Source of the DNA: a virus
Taxonomy: Duplodnaviria; Heunggongvirae; Uroviricota; Caudoviricetes
IMG/VR virus record: IMGVR_UViG_2534681999_000017
DNA length: 36,916 bases
Reading direction: 5' to 3' (one strand)
In this document: positions 1-6,201 of the stretch, piece by piece
Layout of the letters: each line of letters begins with the position of its first letter
How positions within the stretch are numbered: the stretch's first letter is position 1
The notes under the pieces: generated by a model
Database searches by the model: none
Told to the model about the DNA's origin: nothing
What the model saw: the letters and a program-made list of their open reading frames with translations, nothing else
Translations under genes and position numbers: made by a program

Positions 1-1932
1 AAGCGGAGGTAATACACCGTAAGAGCTGGAAAAACCGTGCAGAAGTGGAACTGGCCACACTAACGTGGGTGGACTGGTATAACAATCGACGATTGCTGGG
101 AAGGCTGGGCCATACTCCTCCGGCAGAAGCAGAAAAAGCTTATTATGCTTCCATCGGAAACGATGATCTGGCAGCCTGAGTTCACAGATAAAACACTCTC
201 CAGGAAACCCGGGGCGGTTCAGCAGATTATTCCCTGCATCCCCTGTCAGGGTGACACCCTGCGGCAGAGAGGAAACCGGCCAGTAAAGCCCCATGACATA
301 CTGGTTTGCCACCAGGTCGCCAGGTACTTTAAAACGACAACTGATTAAACCACCATTTTTCAGCAGTTCAGCACCAGTACCGGCATCATGATCCAGATAC
401 CAGGATGATTTACCTGTTTCCTTGGTCAGTTTCATTGCCTTACCACCTGTGCCTCCTGCATCACTGATAATTTCAGCTTTACCGCCAGCCGGCTCCCAGC
501 CCTGGGCTTTCAGATTTCCTTCTGACTCACTGACACGATAAGACAGCAGTGTTGTGGTTACTGCTTCAGTTTCTGAAGGTGACGGCACTGGTGCTTCAGT
601 TTCAGAAGATGGAACATCGGCTTTTACTGTGGTTCGCCCCGCATGAGTCAGAACTGCCGTGGCCAGACGGTCGGAAATAATCCCACGACGTGCCCATGAA
701 CTGAAATGGCTGGCCCGGTCCGCAGATGTCCAGGTGGCGGCACTGTTACGCCACGTTGAGCCGTAATAACCAATGGATTCAATATCCGGGTCTTCTGCCG
801 GATTGTTGGTGGGTACATTCGCGTCATTTTCATCTGTCATTAATGGAACGAAATGAATGTTTTTATCTGTTTTGTTTTTGTAGCCGCCATAGATTGCCTG
901 GTATGCCGGTTCATTTTTCTGTTTCCAGAAATACGTGGTATCGCCACAAATCCACGGAACGCCAGCAGCACTGCCACCGGTACACTGTTCCGCCTGTTCA
1001 GCCAGGTCTGCGCGGAATTTTTCCACCATCGCCAGAAACAGCGCGGAATGCTCCGTCGGCTTCGCATCAATATCAAACTCGCCCTGCATCCACACCACAG
1101 CAAGCAGGCGGTTTTTCGGGTTCTTCGCCAGTGCCGCTTTTGTCCGGCTGATTAAGTCCTTATACAGCGGCTTATCCACACCCCAGCGGGCTGAGTCCTC
1201 TGAAGCACCCGTGCTGTCACTGTACGTGCCGTCAGCACCCGCCGTGAATGCAGAACCACCACGGCAGCAGGGAACCAGCAGAATCCCCGCATCTGCCGGA
1301 ATAAACGGCAGCAGTTTTTTGGCAATGTGAAGCCCCTGACCCACGGTGCCATATTGCCCTTTAGCCACATCCGCTTTCGGGTGATTTTTTCCACTCATAT
1401 CCTGCACATCATGCAGACAGTGGTCGGCCAGAATGATGTCGTTATACTGACAGGCTTTACCTCCCGGCGTGACTGTACTGCGACGGGCTAACTGCATAAT
1501 ACGCGGTTCGGGGCGGTCATATGTCTCCGGCAGTGGCAGACCTTCACCGTAAGCCATACCGTTTGACTGACCAGCAAGAACCACCACGTAATACCAGGAA
1601 GGGGAGCTGGAAGCAGTTTCATTTCCTGACGGACGGGTATGTGTTTCAGCATTATCCCAGTCTGACGGTTCAGCAGTACCGGCAACATCAGCACTTAACG
1701 GAATGACCGCACCAATACCCGCTCCGGTAATTTCCACACTCGGATCACCGGATACTGGCCTTACCCACAGGCAATCCCGTGTATTAAAACTGATGAGACA
1801 GTCAGCAAATGTCATTCCTCCTTTTGTTTCGGCCGGAGGAAAGGGAGCCTCAAGAAATGCCGCTGTACCACCGGAAACTTTAACAGTAAAGTTTCCGGGC
1901 ATTGATGATAGTTGAACCCATTTGGACGTCAT
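1..1932 (-). CDS. nanS: NanS-type sialate O-acetylesterase (SGNH/SASA hydrolase) with N- and C-terminal extensions; 3' end unresolved, frame open to window start
   Basis: ATG at 1932 with AGGAACAGG 9 nt upstream and an in-frame stop at 1963-1965; 644 codons without a stop. Contains VVLAGQSNGMAYGEGLPLP, HDVQDM, QYGTVGQGLHIAKKLLPFIP, LVPCCRGGSAFTAG, WMQGEFD, CGDTTYFWK, SHFSSWARRGIISDRL, co-linear with E. coli NanS/YjhS as recalled. Confidence 0.8.
   Translation of the reverse strand, partial: MTSKWVQLSSMPGNFTVKVSGGTAAFLEAPFPPAETKGGMTFADCLISFNTRDCLWVRPVSGDPSVEITGAGIGAVIPLSADVAGTAEPSDWDNAETHTRPSGNETASSSPSWYYVVVLAGQSNGMAYGEGLPLPETYDRPEPRIMQLARRSTVTPGGKACQYNDIILADHCLHDVQDMSGKNHPKADVAKGQYGTVGQGLHIAKKLLPFIPADAGILLVPCCRGGSAFTAGADGTYSDSTGASEDSARWGVDKPLYKDLISRTKAALAKNPKNRLLAVVWMQGEFDIDAKPTEHSALFLAMVEKFRADLAEQAEQCTGGSAAGVPWICGDTTYFWKQKNEPAYQAIYGGYKNKTDKNIHFVPLMTDENDANVPTNNPAEDPDIESIGYYGSTWRNSAATWTSADRASHFSSWARRGIISDRLATAVLTHAGRTTVKADVPSSETEAPVPSPSETEAVTTTLLSYRVSESEGNLKAQGWEPAGGKAEIISDAGGTGGKAMKLTKETGKSSWYLDHDAGTGAELLKNGGLISCRFKVPGDLVANQYVMGLYWPVSSLPQGVTLTGDAGNNLLNRPGFPGECFICELRLPDHRFRWKHNKLFLLLPEEYGPAFPAIVDCYTSPPTLVWPVPLLHGFSSSYGVLPPL
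3..179 (+). mobile_element. IS3-family (rve/DDE integrase-core) transposase, C-terminal fragment cut by the window edge
   Basis: Frame ending at TGA 177-179 reads AEVIHRKSWKNRAEVELATLTWVDWYNNRRLLGRLGHTPPAEAEKAYYASIGNDDLAA, a typical IS3-family OrfB C-terminus (W-x-DWYNN-RR ... PP-AE-E-YY). Confidence 0.45.
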
Positions 1933-2031
1933 AATAATCAGCCTGTTCCTGAATAAACTGAATTATCATATCCACAGACCGATAAACGCCATTTTGCGTT
2001 AATTCAGTAAAGGCCCAACAAAGAGAGCGTC

Positions 2032-2592
2032 TTATTTTTCCGAAACGCTCGCAGGATAATAACGATAAAGGGTTGAAAGGCCGATATCAAAAATAAGTGC
2101 CACCTGTCTTCGACTGACACCCCCGGCCAGTAAACGCCCGACCTGCTCGTATTGTTCCTGCGTGAGACGACGGGGTCTGCCGCCGGTTCGTCCCCTTTCA
2201 CGGGCAGCTGCAAGACCAGCCCGTGTCCGTTCGACAATTAATTCACGCTCCATTTCTGCCAGCGCACCCATTATGTGAAAAAAGAAGCGCCCCATGGGGG
2301 TTGACGTATCAATGTTGTCAGTAAGACTACGAAAATTTATCCCCTGTTGCTGTAATTCATCTGTCAGCGCAACAAGGTGGCGCATACTGCGCCCCAGCCT
2401 GTCCAGTTTCCAGACCATCAGTGTGTCACCGGGTTTTAGTTTCTTCAGTGCCCGCTTCAGTCCCGGCCGCTGTGTCGTTTTACCACTCATTTTATCTTCA
2501 AAAATCTGCTCACATCCTGCACATTCCAGCGCATTTCTTTGTAAACCTGTGTTCTGGTCATTTGTTGATACGCGTATATAGCCAATCAGCAT
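2032..2592 (-). CDS. gin: Serine DNA invertase, Gin/Pin/Cin/Hin family
   Basis: 186 aa, MLIGYIRVSTNDQNTGLQRNALECAGCEQIFEDK...VWKLDRLGRSM...GINFRSLTDNIDTSTPMGRFFFHIMGALAEMERELIVERT; near-identical motif order to Mu Gin and e14 Pin. Confidence 0.93.
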   Translation of the reverse strand: MLIGYIRVSTNDQNTGLQRNALECAGCEQIFEDKMSGKTTQRPGLKRALKKLKPGDTLMVWKLDRLGRSMRHLVALTDELQQQGINFRSLTDNIDTSTPMGRFFFHIMGALAEMERELIVERTRAGLAAARERGRTGGRPRRLTQEQYEQVGRLLAGGVSRRQVALIFDIGLSTLYRYYPASVSEK

Positions 2593-2647
2593 GTATTTAC
2601 CTTCCTTAAAAAGAGGTGGAAAGGCCTTTTAAAGCAGATATACGGCA

Positions 2648-2673
2648 TCCCTGAAACCTTCGGTTTACGGGAT
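2648..2673. other. gix-like crossover site A (gin-proximal), 26 bp imperfect dyad
   Basis: TCCCTGAAACCT TC GGTTTACGGGAT; the inner half (TCCCGTAAACC on the other strand) is shared with site B and matches the Hin/Gin half-site pattern ending AAACC. Confidence 0.6.
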
Positions 2674-2815
2674 ACTGTAAACAGGGCCGCGAATGCCCTG
2701 CCATCGAACGGAGCGGCTGTTGCAGCGAATAAACTCGCCACTCCAAGAAATATTAATGGTGTCCCATTTGACGGAACGCAGGATATAAATATTACATCGG
2801 GGATGACGCAGTCTG
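2663..2815. repeat. Inverted repeat arm 1 of the invertible segment (about 150 bp), encoding the conserved start of the alternative fibre tip
   Basis: High identity to the reverse complement of 3886-4034, for example CTCGCCACTCCAAGAAATATTAATGGTGTCCCATTTGACGGAACGC versus CTCGCCACCCCAAGAAATATTAATGGTGTTCCTTTTGACGGAACGC. Confidence 0.8.
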
Positions 2816-3018
2816 TGGCTGACTCACGTTATGTTCAAAGCATTCGAAGAGGTTCAAGGTCAACGATTGGAATGCAATATAATATTTTTGAGGTTCCTGA
2901 CGGATGCGTACTTACAGGGCTTGATGTCGCTGGTGATGGTAATGCAACGGTAACCGCATATTATCGACCTGTTCAGTTTCTGATAGATGGTTCGTGGAAA
3001 ACAGCTTCCAGCGCATAA
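2674..3018 (+). CDS. Alternative tail-fibre C-terminal tip (Sv'-like exon), no start of its own, silent in this orientation
   Basis: In-frame reading from site A gives ...GLRDTVNRAANALPSNGAAVAANKLATPRNINGVPFDGTQDINITSGMTQSVADSRYVQ...YYRPVQFLIDGSWKTASSA, homologous to the S C-terminus (…ATPRNINGVPFDGTLDINITSGMTQS…YYRPVQIYINNAWRTVSSV). Confidence 0.7.
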   Translation, partial: TVNRAANALPSNGAAVAANKLATPRNINGVPFDGTQDINITSGMTQSVADSRYVQSIRRGSRSTIGMQYNIFEVPDGCVLTGLDVAGDGNATVTAYYRPVQFLIDGSWKTASSA

Positions 3019-3097
3019 AAGTGCAGTAGTTCAAAAAACAGATTATCTGAATAAATATATGATGATTTTGTCTTTTCAACAAAAACAAGGTGAAATA

Positions 3098-3619
3098 ATG
3101 GAGCTTATTAACGTAAAACGATATTACCCGGAACACAAACCCTATGGTGAGGATGTTCAGTATTTCCAGAGTGAGGACGGAAGGGATTTTTATGAATCTA
3201 TCCCGCTTTTCACAAAGAAATACAAACTCTGTATTTCGCCTGTAACGGGTATTATCTGCTCTGTTGCTGAAGATGTCTCTGCTTTATATCCGGCAGGTTT
3301 TACTGTTGTTGAAGTGGACGAACTGCCGGAAGGTGTGAATATTGACGGTAACTGGCAGTTTTCTGATGGCCTGATATCAAAGGTGACGGTAAACTGGAAG
3401 ACGGTTGCTGAAAAGCGCCGCTCATCGCTGCTCCAGGAAGCCAACGAAACTGTGGATGACTGGAAAACGGAATTAAAACTGGACATGATTAGCGATGAAA
3501 ATAAATTACAGCTGACGCGCTGGATGGCGTATATCCGACAGCTTAAAGAAATGCACTTTAATGATATTGCCAGTGAGGGGCATTACCAGGCGATTCCCTG
3601 GCCGGAAAAACCGGAATAA
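3098..3619 (+). CDS. Tail-fibre assembly chaperone (Mu U / Tfa family)
   Basis: ATG at 3098 with AAGGTGA upstream; MELINVKRYYPEHKPYGEDVQYFQSEDGRDFYES...LTRWMAYIRQLKEMHFNDIA...PWPEKPE; the ORF-track start at 2987 is an upstream over-extension. Confidence 0.8.
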   Translation: MELINVKRYYPEHKPYGEDVQYFQSEDGRDFYESIPLFTKKYKLCISPVTGIICSVAEDVSALYPAGFTVVEVDELPEGVNIDGNWQFSDGLISKVTVNWKTVAEKRRSSLLQEANETVDDWKTELKLDMISDENKLQLTRWMAYIRQLKEMHFNDIASEGHYQAIPWPEKPE

Positions 3620-3653
3620 TTCAGAGGGTGCATTCAGCACCCTTTTCTGTGGT

Positions 3654-4565
3654 TTACACTGAACTTACCGTTCTCCAGGCATTATTAATATAAATCTGAA
3701 CCGGGCGATAATAGACCCCACCGATATTGTCCGCAGACCGGGAGCCGGTTTCCTGCACGTTAATTCCGGAAAGCATACAACCGGAAGGTGCGCTGTAATT
3801 CCATGACATTTCATTGCCTCCGGGTGAATGATAGCTCTGTGCTCCAAGCTGAACATTCTGTACATACCGGCCATCTGCGGTTGACTGCGTCATTCCTGAC
3901 GTGATGTTGATATCCAGCGTTCCGTCAAAAGGAACACCATTAATATTTCTTGGGGTGGCGAGTCTGTTTGCTGCCACGGCGGTTCCACCCGATGGCAGGG
4001 CATCAGCAGCCTTATTTACCGTTTCCCGTAAACCAACGTTATCGATAAAAGCGCCTTTATCCGGAATGTCTGCGCCGTTCTGCTCCCTGCGCAGGTAACG
4101 GTTATCACCTTCGCTTTTGCTGTAAACATCCAGATTATTACGGGCGGTTCCCGCATTCTCCAGGTCGGCAAGGTTCTGATCCTTCGCCAGAGCATTAACG
4201 TCACCGGGACCAAGACTGTTTTTTGTGGCAAGCGCCCCAAGACCAAGATAACCACGGGCAAGACGCTGGGCTTCCGCACCGGCATCAGCAATTTCTTTCA
4301 GGTTGTTTTTCCGGGAAAAGGCATTCGCAGCGATAATGGCTTTAATGGACAGCGTAAGCTGGTTTAACTGCGCCTTATCCGGCTGAATACTGGCTTCAGC
4401 CAGAATATTCAGCAGTTCGGCCTGGAGAATATTCAGCCAGTCCTGACCAATCCAGCTGATACCTTTTTGTCCGTCACCTTCGGTAAACCAGGTGGTGGTA
4501 TTACTCTGCGCCGGTGCCAGCGCAGGCATATTCGCCACGCCGGAATTATTATCAACATGGAACAT
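3654..4565 (-). CDS. Tail fibre protein (Mu S-like), constant part fused to the currently expressed tip
   Basis: True start MFHVDNNSGVANMPALAPAQ at 4565 (ATG overlaps the upstream stop as TAATG); C-terminus ...GVYYRPVQIYINNAWRTVSSV is a P2 H / Mu S-type fibre tip. Confidence 0.85.
   Translation of the reverse strand: MFHVDNNSGVANMPALAPAQSNTTTWFTEGDGQKGISWIGQDWLNILQAELLNILAEASIQPDKAQLNQLTLSIKAIIAANAFSRKNNLKEIADAGAEAQRLARGYLGLGALATKNSLGPGDVNALAKDQNLADLENAGTARNNLDVYSKSEGDNRYLRREQNGADIPDKGAFIDNVGLRETVNKAADALPSGGTAVAANRLATPRNINGVPFDGTLDINITSGMTQSTADGRYVQNVQLGAQSYHSPGGNEMSWNYSAPSGCMLSGINVQETGSRSADNIGGVYYRPVQIYINNAWRTVSSV
3886..4034. repeat. Inverted repeat arm 2 of the invertible segment
   Basis: Reverse complement of this stretch aligns with 2663-2815; homology starts exactly at the shared gix half-site. 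Confidence 0.8.
4023..4048. other. gix-like crossover site B, inside the S tail-fibre coding sequence
   Basis: TTCCCGTAAACC AA CGTTATCGATAA, compared with the Mu gixL sequence as recalled (TTCCTGTAAACC GA GGTTTTGGATAA); inverted relative to site A. Confidence 0.6.
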
Positions 4566-5125
4566 TAAATATTCTCCTCTTCGTGACTGTTTGCATATAC
4601 GTAAATAAACGTCTGCCATGCAGGCTTATAACGGTTCAGAATACATTCCAGCGCACCGCCTTCATAAATACGCAGCGGCGTGAGAATATCATCCAGCACA
4701 TTCATATTCCGGTAGCCGGTTTCACTGTTAATCGTGACAATACTGACCCACTGTGAATCCGGTGATGGCTGAATATCTATTTCATAACCAAACTCTGCCG
4801 CAAACCGGATATAAAATTCACGGTTAAGAGAGGGTTTCATCCGGTATTTATTCCCGGCATAACGCTGACGCTCCTGAATGGTTGCGCCGGTCATATCACA
4901 TTCCGGTAACCCCAGATAACGCTCCCAGTCTTCCAGCAGCAGACGGGATGAATCAGGAAAACGTTCTGCCAGCATCTGGTTACCGGTCCAGGAAACACGC
5001 TCCGTGGAATGACTGAGGCCCAGGCACAAAGCCGCAAGAACGGATGACGGCCGCTTATCCCATGCCAGCCCGTCAGGCAGCAACTGCAACAGGGCGCGCT
5101 GATGCGGGGTCAGGGTTACAGCCAT
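4565..5125 (-). CDS. Baseplate/tail protein, Mu gp48-like (P2 gpI-like)
   Basis: 186 aa ORF in the syntenic position immediately upstream of S; translationally coupled. Confidence 0.7.
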   Translation of the reverse strand: MAVTLTPHQRALLQLLPDGLAWDKRPSSVLAALCLGLSHSTERVSWTGNQMLAERFPDSSRLLLEDWERYLGLPECDMTGATIQERQRYAGNKYRMKPSLNREFYIRFAAEFGYEIDIQPSPDSQWVSIVTINSETGYRNMNVLDDILTPLRIYEGGALECILNRYKPAWQTFIYVYANSHEEENI

Positions 5126-6201
5126 GTGATTTCCCCCACGGTCAGCAACTCTGTATCTCCGGCCATCACGGACTTCAGCGGGCTGCGAACTTCAAAATCC
5201 TCCAGTCCTTTCACCCCTGCAACAGCCCGCCAGAATGATGAAGGCAATACAAGTCCACCCGGCCGCGATTCGTTATAAAGCAGGTCTGTTAATGCCTGTT
5301 TTACGGCAGCCTGATTTTCCGGCGTTTTGGGTACAATCCTGATCTCAAACGCCACCGGCTTATTGGTCAGCTTAAACACGCTGATTGTCGGCCCAAGTGG
5401 CTGACCAACGGGCTGGCCCGTCGCCGGATCATCATGACTGCGGATATAATCCGCCACCCGCTTCACATCACCTTCTCCGGGGAAAATGTCAGGGTTATTA
5501 TCCTGAACAAAAGTCACACCAACACTACCCGCCTCAGGCCATTCAGGCTTACACCATGCCCGCGTCACGCCCGGTACTTCCCGTGCCCAGCGTTCAAAAT
5601 CATACTGTGTTCCCCCTGATGGCGGGTTCTGTACCCGGAATACCAGCCTGGACAGCAACTCCGGCACCGTTTCCACATCCGCACCACCGGTGAGTCCCGT
5701 GCCGGTGACCGTGGCTGTCTGGTTGATGCCCGCCTGTGGCGTGATAAAGGACAGGCGGGTTCCGGTCGGGGTATTTCCAGCGCGCCCCGCACTTTCCGCC
5801 TCCACATTAACATTCAGTGTTCCGGCTTTTCCGGTCGCAGAGCCGGTGATGCGGTACACAACCCCATCGCTTCGCTGAAGGAGTACGCCTTCCGTGATCC
5901 CTGCATCCGTGGTCAGCATCAGTTGTACCGGTCCGTCAGCGCGGGAAGCCGGTTTACGGATGACACCCCAGAATGCGCAGTGTTTCAGGAGTTCGGCTTC
6001 ATCAGCTTCTGTCGGAATTATCTGCCGGGAGATCCAGGCCAGATGTTCATGCTCCTGTGCTGACAGACCCGCCAGTGCATACGCAATGGCATTCAGGGTG
6101 GTTTCATTCACGCCCGGCTGCGAACCGGGCAGGCGCTGGCTGATATCCTGTTGTGTCTGTGTGATCAGTTGCGCCAGTGGTAAGGGCTGATAAGGCATCA
6201 T
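5116..6201 (-). CDS. Baseplate J-like protein (Mu gp47-like)
   Basis: 361 aa, position and size match the baseplate wedge J family; overlaps neighbours by a few nt. Confidence 0.75.
   Translation of the reverse strand: MMPYQPLPLAQLITQTQQDISQRLPGSQPGVNETTLNAIAYALAGLSAQEHEHLAWISRQIIPTEADEAELLKHCAFWGVIRKPASRADGPVQLMLTTDAGITEGVLLQRSDGVVYRITGSATGKAGTLNVNVEAESAGRAGNTPTGTRLSFITPQAGINQTATVTGTGLTGGADVETVPELLSRLVFRVQNPPSGGTQYDFERWAREVPGVTRAWCKPEWPEAGSVGVTFVQDNNPDIFPGEGDVKRVADYIRSHDDPATGQPVGQPLGPTISVFKLTNKPVAFEIRIVPKTPENQAAVKQALTDLLYNESRPGGLVLPSSFWRAVAGVKGLEDFEVRSPLKSVMAGDTELLTVGEITWL

Follow-up and report, generated by a model that had tools for sequence, protein, structure and literature searches.

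The stretch of DNA analyzed here (36,916 nucleotides, IMG/VR record IMGVR_UViG_2534681999_000017; hereafter the window) is, judging from its sequence, an Sp18-type Mu-like prophage of Shiga-toxin Escherichia coli (STEC). It carries an invertible segment of about 1.4 kb (2647-4048), which is bounded by two inverted gix-like sites and adjoined by an invertase gene. The best explanation of the locus as a whole, which we hold with considerable confidence, is a tail-fibre host-range switch, homologous to the Mu G segment but smaller. An earlier note made from the sequence alone had interpreted the segment in this way, and that interpretation was right: clean natural inversions in sister prophages, the anatomy of the segment, its homologies and an allele census were all observed.

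Over the 2.7 kb around the segment, the window matches prophages in 33 of the 5,426 complete E. coli genomes searched at 100% identity, all 33 being STEC (serogroups O157:H7, O26, O103 and O145:H28), and at 99.9% identity it matches prophage Sp18 of O157:H7 Sakai, in which the locus is annotated as DNA-invertase, tail fiber, tail fiber assembly protein and phage tail fiber (ECs_4992 to ECs_4989). Sp18-type Mu-like prophages were found in approximately 200 of the same 5,426 genomes, mostly STEC (O157, O26, O103, O111 and O145). Asadulghani et al. regarded Sp18 as apparently intact, found that its DNA gets packaged, and already mentioned its "invertible host-specificity region" (PMC2669165). Thus, neither the element nor its invertibility is new. 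In our literature searches, the sites of Sp18, its variation in orientation and its layout with a single tail-fibre assembly gene (tfa) were undescribed beyond one sentence in that paper. We therefore deal with a known element of a known kind, to which the census of both orientations, the 3-bp spacer of the window's copy, the hypervariable core and the one-chaperone layout are added here as modestly interesting details.

Anatomy and natural inversion of the segment

The features of the segment and its surroundings are as follows (positions in the window).

2032-2592, minus strand: Gin-family serine DNA-invertase gene, 186 aa (Pfam Resolvase, E 1.4e-51, and HTH_7)
2507-2574, minus strand: region homologous to the recombinational (Fis) enhancer of P7 cin (P7 annotation, cin gene nt 19-86)
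2647-2673: left gix-like site, aberrant, 27 bp, ATCCCTGAAACC-TTC-GGTTTACGGGAT, with a 3-bp spacer at 2659-2661
2653-2837 and 3859-4043: left and right arms of an inverted repeat, 185 nt, 77% complementary; coding homology of the proximal variable regions
2662-3018, plus strand: silent alternative fibre C-terminus Sv' (tip B), from the in-silico flip and annotated flipped genomes
3019-3097, plus strand: AT-rich 79-nt spacer upstream of tfa; hypothetical candidate for a tfa-specific promoter site
3098-3619, plus strand: tail-fibre assembly chaperone gene tfa, 173 aa (Pfam Caudo_TAP, E 7e-19)
3623-3645, plus strand: hairpin and T-run after tfa, terminator-like
3654-4034, minus strand: expressed variable fibre C-terminus Sv (tip A), part of the open reading frame (ORF) 3654-4565
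4023-4048: right gix-like site, TTCCCGTAAACC-AA-CGTTATCGATAA, canonical 12-2-12, within the fibre ORF and encoding FIDNVGLRE
4037-4565, minus strand: constant N-terminal fibre part (Sc), homologous to the N-terminus of Mu S

The flipped configuration was built in silico and searched in the complete E. coli genomes. The orientation of the window (orientation A) was found in 181 genomes, counted at 80% or more of the query, and the flipped one (orientation B) in 23, several of them at 99.9% identity. The earlier note had named the detection of both orientations as a check of its proposal, and both indeed occur in public genomes, differing by a clean inversion at the sites. We compared TX 265-1 (A) with FORC_044 and 2-6-2 (B), and Sakai (A) with Z1323MEC0002 (B), and found no mismatch in the 600-nt and 400-nt flanks and none in the reverse-complemented segment of 1,373 bp. 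The outer half-sites differ beside the core and the inner half-sites at their 12th base, which leaves the core plus 11 bp as the only place for the crossover. Clean inversions of this sort are the outcome predicted by site-specific recombination. Both orientations of the segment, with crossover at the core, thus exist in the prophage family. Diverged relatives in IMG/VR are built alike (tip, tfa, tip, invertase), have different tip alleles and also occur in both orientations. It counts against this account that the orientation of each genome, including that of the window strain, is an assembly consensus rather than a read-level observation.

Two alternative fibre tips had been claimed for the segment, and both are present. 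The expressed ORF (3654-4565, minus strand) encodes 303 aa ending in RTVSSV, while the silent tip ending in KTASSA is an ORF fragment (2674-3018, plus strand) with no start codon. In the in-silico flip, tip B is fused to the constant part to make an ORF of 295 aa, whose product is found in the annotation of flipped genomes (WP_032213164.1). The fibres of 303 aa (A) and 295 aa (B), which share residues 1-181, both appear among the annotated proteins of public genomes. Via a site inside the fibre gene, one constant N-terminal part is thus joined to either of two C-terminal parts. Fibre residues 1-198 are 46% identical to residues 1-191 of Mu S, and the last ~70 aa of tip A are 41% identical to Mu S 437-503. 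Tip B has 40% identity with the Mu S tip and, across its final ~70 residues, 36% with tip A; the pattern YYRPVQ..I..W.T.SS closes both tips. Because the N-terminus and the tips are homologous to the two ends of Mu S, the fibre looks like Mu S without the middle ~245 residues.

Inverted homology of about 150 bp starting from each site had also been proposed. The repeat does begin at the sites, but its length is 185 nt at 77% complementarity; the second-longest inverted repeat in the first 8 kb is of 30 nt. The homology of the arms is that of coding sequence, with ~55 similar residues (...TVNKAADALPSGGTAVAANRLATPRNINGVPFDGT...) opening both variable parts.

Over 181 aa, the invertase has 75% identity with Mu Gin; it matches DNA-invertase structures (PDB 3uj3/4m6f, E 2e-91), and its identity with Cin of P1/P7 and with P2-like phage invertases is 71-76%. 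It is a small serine recombinase of the invertase subfamily, with a resolvase catalytic domain and a C-terminal helix-turn-helix. The earlier note had suggested looking for a Fis-binding enhancer in the 5' part of the gene, and the outcome depends on the phage compared. The P7 record places the cin enhancer at nt 19-86 of the gene, and the counterpart in the window (2507-2574) is 83% identical to P7 at the nucleotide level, in comparison with 64% for the rest of the gene. Identity to P7 at synonymous codons is 13/19 in the enhancer region and 36/100 elsewhere (p=0.011). Fis-like 15-mers of the form G-N13-C lie at the ends of this stretch, ~49 bp apart, namely GTATCAACAAATGAC (2557-2571), which is identical in Mu, and GTGCAGGATGTGAGC (2508-2522). 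With Mu gin as the partner, the excess of synonymous identity did not reach significance (p=0.15 over codons 1-37 and p=0.48 over codons 7-29), a point against the enhancer reading. Altogether, the data are only suggestive of a putative Fis enhancer in the 5' part of the invertase gene.

The mechanism that we propose rests on homology with Gin, Cin and Hin, and the use of Fis and the enhancer is drawn from the analogy to these systems. Dimers of the Gin-family invertase (2032-2592) would bind both inverted gix-like sites and, with Fis bound at the enhancer in the 5' part of the invertase gene, both sites would be cut at the central 2 bp. The constant part would be joined to tip A in orientation A, giving the 303-aa fibre, and to tip B in orientation B, giving the 295-aa fibre with tfa directly downstream. 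After inversion, the hairpin at 3623-3645 would end the transcript of the fibre gene and tfa. The single tfa would be read from its own promoter and serve both homologous tips. In the window's copy, the 1-bp insertion would put one half-site out of register, and the switch would be frozen in orientation A.

A single chaperone gene and two tips

The description of the segment in the earlier note did not mention that there is only a single tfa. This gene is the sole tfa homologue in the whole window and the sole plus-strand gene of the late region. The protein is 28-31% identical to Mu U and U' and matches PDB 5yvq_B (E 1e-15). The pairing of each tip with a chaperone gene behind it (S-U and S'-U') was not found, and the one-tfa layout is shared by the diverged relatives. 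The tfa gene runs in the direction of Sv' and towards the expressed fibre gene, so that in orientation A, seen in ~90% of the genomes, it lies outside the late transcript. In orientation B, tfa stands directly downstream of tip B and is followed by the terminator-like hairpin.

How a fibre gene is supplied with the Tfa that it converges on is a small but testable question posed by this layout. The clues come from a lineage in IMG/VR (L019-L024 and L030), in which the invertase, the left site and tip B have been lost via one common deletion junction and the segment is fixed in orientation A (~3640-5470 in L021). The tfa genes of this lineage are intact and convergent; their ratio of nonsynonymous to synonymous divergence (dN/dS) is 0.10-0.23, with dS reaching 0.43, and the sequence upstream of them diverges by only 0-8% over ~115 nt. 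Purifying selection on tfa in lineages that lack the invertase and are fixed in A makes a promoter of its own probable. Furthermore, non-invertible relatives have the same Tfa family ~20 nt after tips resembling tip A. Thus, we consider it most likely that tfa is transcribed autonomously and serves both of the homologous tips.

Two of the searches disagree with autonomous transcription. A scan of 1900-4700 for sigma-70 promoters found none on the plus strand upstream of tfa, and the motifs common to the 79-nt spacer and other intergenic regions of the prophage were short AT-rich words only. These negatives leave some room for tfa serving orientation B alone and being silent in A, where the tip-A fibre would fold by itself or borrow the Tfa of another prophage. 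STEC genomes carry many other tfa genes, and in the window's segment tfa is co-directional with tip B alone and ends at a terminator-like hairpin, both of which agree with a role in B. This alternative fails to explain why lineages fixed in A keep tfa intact, convergent and under selection with a conserved upstream region, or why non-invertible relatives place the same family directly after tip-A-like tips. We regard it as rather unlikely, at perhaps one chance in four, and prefer the autonomous transcription of tfa.

The ~115 nt upstream of tfa in L017, L019, L021 and L029 (A1 columns 466-583) are highly conserved and non-coding, and they contain the dyad CTGAAA(A)TATGCGTTATTTCAG. This region is possibly a regulatory site or the promoter of tfa. 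The 79-nt spacer of the window differs from it. A scan of genome contigs with Tfa yielded no confirmed relatives.

Crossover cores and the state of the window's copy

The paired, inverted gix-like 26-mers reported in the earlier note are present at 2648-2673 (TCCCTGAAACCTTCGGTTTACGGGAT) and 4023-4048 (TTCCCGTAAACCAACGTTATCGATAA). Their common half-site is the 11-mer TCCCGTAAACC, of which the 36.9-kb window has just two copies, one per strand (2662-2672, minus; 4024-4034, plus). By arithmetic ~0.02 exact matches of an 11-mer are expected by chance, while a shuffle figure of 0.59 covers matches with up to one mismatch. Both sites align to Mu gix and P7 cix, as had been suggested for a check:

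Mu gix: outer half-site TTATCCAAAACC, core TC, inner half-site GGTTTACAGGAA
P7 cixR: outer half-site TTATCCAATACC, core TT, inner half-site GGTTTAAGAGAA
Window, right site: outer half-site TTATCGATAACG, core TT, inner half-site GGTTTACGGGAA
Window, left site: outer half-site ATCCCTGAAACC, spacer TTC, inner half-site GGTTTACGGGAT

The cores had been aligned as AA versus GA. This holds true in a frame of 26 bp, but the difference is not a simple mismatch: sister prophages, with left sites of 26 bp and a TT or TC core, reveal that the window has a 3-bp spacer, TTC (2659-2661). The defect of the left site is accordingly a 1-bp insertion on top of a polymorphic core. Two 26-bp sites with identical 2-bp cores are found in Sakai (TT/TT) and TX 265-1 (TC/TC) but not in the window. 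Since TC is the core in Mu and TT in P7, both matched alleles are plausible as working sites. Over the left site, the genome annotation pipeline (PGAP) places an antisense 'hypothetical protein' of 61 aa (~2586-2741, minus strand; WP_071526725.1), flagged as frameshifted in genomes with TTC; this ORF is probably not a gene.

The crossover dinucleotide is the only hypervariable spot in DNA that is otherwise identical over 2.4 kb, its second base being T or C at both sites (window positions 2660/2661 and 4035/4036, likewise variable in L001-L009 and L091-L093). In the right site, this change is synonymous (GTT/GTC, Val). Six combinations of left and right cores were directly read in orientation A:

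TT/TT: Sakai
TT/TC: strain 150, 99.1145
TC/TT: strain 114
TC/TC: TX 265-1
TTC/TT: the window
TTC/TC: FRIK2455

Sequencing error was rejected as the source of the T, C and TTC variation, as the alleles recur in dozens of independent assemblies. We counted the cores in the complete E. coli genomes with junction-specific queries of 79-80 nt. The left junction in orientation A was TTC in 36 genomes, TT in 24 and TC in ~97, and the right junction was TT in 89 and TC in ~73. These counts imply that at least 29 genomes are TC/TT and that at least 65 of the ~160 orientation-A genomes have mismatched or 3-bp cores. The six combinations could have come from heteroduplexes left by occasional ligation of mismatched cores, or from homologous exchange between co-resident TT/TT and TC/TC copies.

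The outer half-sites of natural sites are degenerate. In L004 and L005 (Z869 and 2012C-4502), the left outer half-site has GAAAACC instead of GAAACC, and the variant with four A is also seen in the IMG/VR locus L016 and the L026 type. In these two prophages, the repeat arms do not differ from each other over their first ~27 nt, which indicates gene conversion between them.

The worry expressed in the earlier note, that unequal cores may affect inversion, was well aimed. In orientation B, both junctions were resolved in nine near-identical genomes, of which seven are TC/TC and two TT/TT; none is mismatched and none has TTC. The association between being flipped and having matched cores gives p=0.013 in Fisher's test, a value uncorrected for shared ancestry in a set that includes clonal series. 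The inversion switch itself is textbook biology, but public genomes supply a natural experiment in which near-identical DNA is flipped only where the 2-bp cores match. This pattern agrees with the rule known from serine invertases in vitro and marks the field strains that are expected to be switch-competent.

The TTC allele occurs in orientation A in all of the 36 genomes that carry it and in no genome in B, and the extra base was found at no right junction in the 5,426 genomes, be they A or B. Exact-pattern scans of IMG/VR viral contigs likewise found neither the TTC allele nor a transferred extra base. A single metagenome match to these patterns was discarded as an unrelated, GC-rich chance match. 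In every register, one 12-bp half-site of the left site is shifted by 1 bp, and the cores also mismatch in the 26-bp frame. In Hin, a single base change in the hix core blocks ligation in the inverted orientation (PMC4817059). Because religation after inversion needs identical 2-bp cores and the left site has a 1-bp insertion, the switch is probably frozen in A; we thus think it fairly probable that the window's copy is locked, or strongly impaired, in this orientation.

Three points weigh against this account of the switch and its cores. If TTC is compared with matched cores alone, 36:0 against ~92:9, the difference is not significant (p=0.11). The genomes are not phylogenetically independent. 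Moreover, ~90% of the matched-core genomes are in A, away from the 50:50 expected at equilibrium. The allele of the window might still invert usefully if the invertase tolerated a 3-bp spacer, for instance by using a TT core with a shifted inner half-site. The spread of TTC at 100% identity over O157, O26, O103 and O145 suggests that it is not obviously deleterious, zero flipped genomes in 36 is only weakly different from ~9% among those with matched cores, and outer half-sites are already degenerate in nature. However, any register displaces a 12-bp half-site by 1 bp, the alternative register leaves a TC core facing a TT core, which is the kind of mismatch that blocks ligation of recombinants in Hin, and the products of such an inversion (TTC in B, or the extra base at a right junction) were absent from both the E. 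coli genomes and IMG/VR. We judge continued inversion of this allele to be improbable, and a lock or strong impairment in A remains our preferred reading.

The core data bear as well on how orientation B arose. RecA-dependent recombination between the 185-nt repeats, or errors of assembly, might be invoked given that the inverted repeat exists and that the arms interact by gene conversion in Z869-type prophages, but the arms agree at only 77% of positions, with unbroken matches of ~20 bp, the breakpoint of each A/B pair falls inside 13 bp at the extreme end of the homology, at the gix core, without hybrid arms, an intact Gin homologue adjoins the segment, and all of the flipped genomes are core-matched, which neither homologous recombination nor mis-assembly would need. 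We therefore rejected this origin as very improbable, on the clean breakpoints in the core interval and the matched cores of all flipped genomes.

A joint and bolder proposal, which we put forward tentatively as it is more likely wrong than right, combines the two parts. The crossover dinucleotide of this prophage family would be a recurrent natural lock on host-range switching, in which T/C mismatches and a +1 insertion arise repeatedly in DNA that is the same elsewhere and freeze orientation A, maybe as by-products of cleavage and religation by the invertase. The segment would be a minimal, one-chaperone G segment, whose tfa has its own conserved promoter and folds both tips.

Comparison with known switches and the neighbouring genes

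From left to right, the order in the window is invertase, left site, tip B, the 79-nt AT-rich spacer, tfa, hairpin, and the fibre gene with the right site inside. Beyond these lie:

4565-5125: Mu gp48-like gene, preceding the fibre gene
5116-6201: baseplate J gene

This is like Mu, in which the order is gp47, gp48, fibre, invertible segment and invertase. The note had called the segment an analogue of the Mu G segment, and this is borne out by the invertase that is 75% identical to Gin, the fibre homologous to Mu S and the sites that align to gix. Within the fibre ORF, the site has the same position as in Mu (FIxNxGLxE; FIQNLGLQE in Mu), and the inner half-site is nearly identical (GGTTTAC(G/A)GGAA). 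The small size given there also stands, at 1.4 kb in comparison with 3 kb in Mu. The variable parts are ~115-125 aa as opposed to ~335 aa, as if Mu S ~192-436 were missing, and there is one tfa in place of U and U'; the compactness is due to these short tips and the single tfa. As the outer half-sites of the window are unlike each other, there is no perfect 34-bp repeat but a 185-nt, 77% coding repeat, which differs from Mu, and so does the 3-bp left spacer of the window's copy.

The C segment of P1/P7 has an invertase, Cin, that is 71-72% identical to that of the window, and cix sites of 12-2-12 with the TT core of the TT allele; the enhancer of P7 occupies nt 19-86 of its invertase gene, a stretch over which the window shows 83% identity. 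On the other hand, the C segment measures ~4 kb, its inverted repeats are long, either orientation has chaperones of its own (U' versus Ua/Ub in P7), and the invertase lies on the other side, beside Sv'. The P segment of e14 has two tfa genes. Hin/hix of Salmonella and Pin of e14 (Din family) are serine invertases with 26-bp sites, in which identity of the 2-bp core is needed for the ligation of recombinants (PMC4817059, PMC3798978). Unlike the segment of the window, Hin switches a promoter and not a fibre tip. For SfMu of Shigella flexneri, it was proposed that G inversion is weakened or lost through a 1-bp change beside the crossover dinucleotide of one repeat (PMC4406740). SfMu is thus a precedent for a naturally disabled site, although its change is a substitution, not an insertion, and lies in a full-size Mu-type G segment (S, U, U' and S').

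A Mu-like region with 94% identity is annotated inside Stx2c- and Stx1a-converting phages (LC727881.1, 40386-43085; LC727895.1, 38021-40720). With Sp18 DNA being packaged (PMC2669165) and copies lying inside Stx phages, host range bears on gene flow among pathogens.

The left end of the window (1-219) is the end of an IS3-family element, with the C-terminus of a transposase at 45-179; we presume this element to be IS629. It truncates a SASA/DUF6645 (nanS-like) esterase gene (220-1932, minus strand), and this junction between the element and the esterase gene was absent from all 5,426 complete E. coli genomes. The esterase gene, a cargo gene downstream of the invertase that encodes a sialate O-acetylesterase-like protein (Pfam SASA), is intact in Sakai with 680 aa. 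Mu has com/mom at the spot that the esterase gene occupies in the window.

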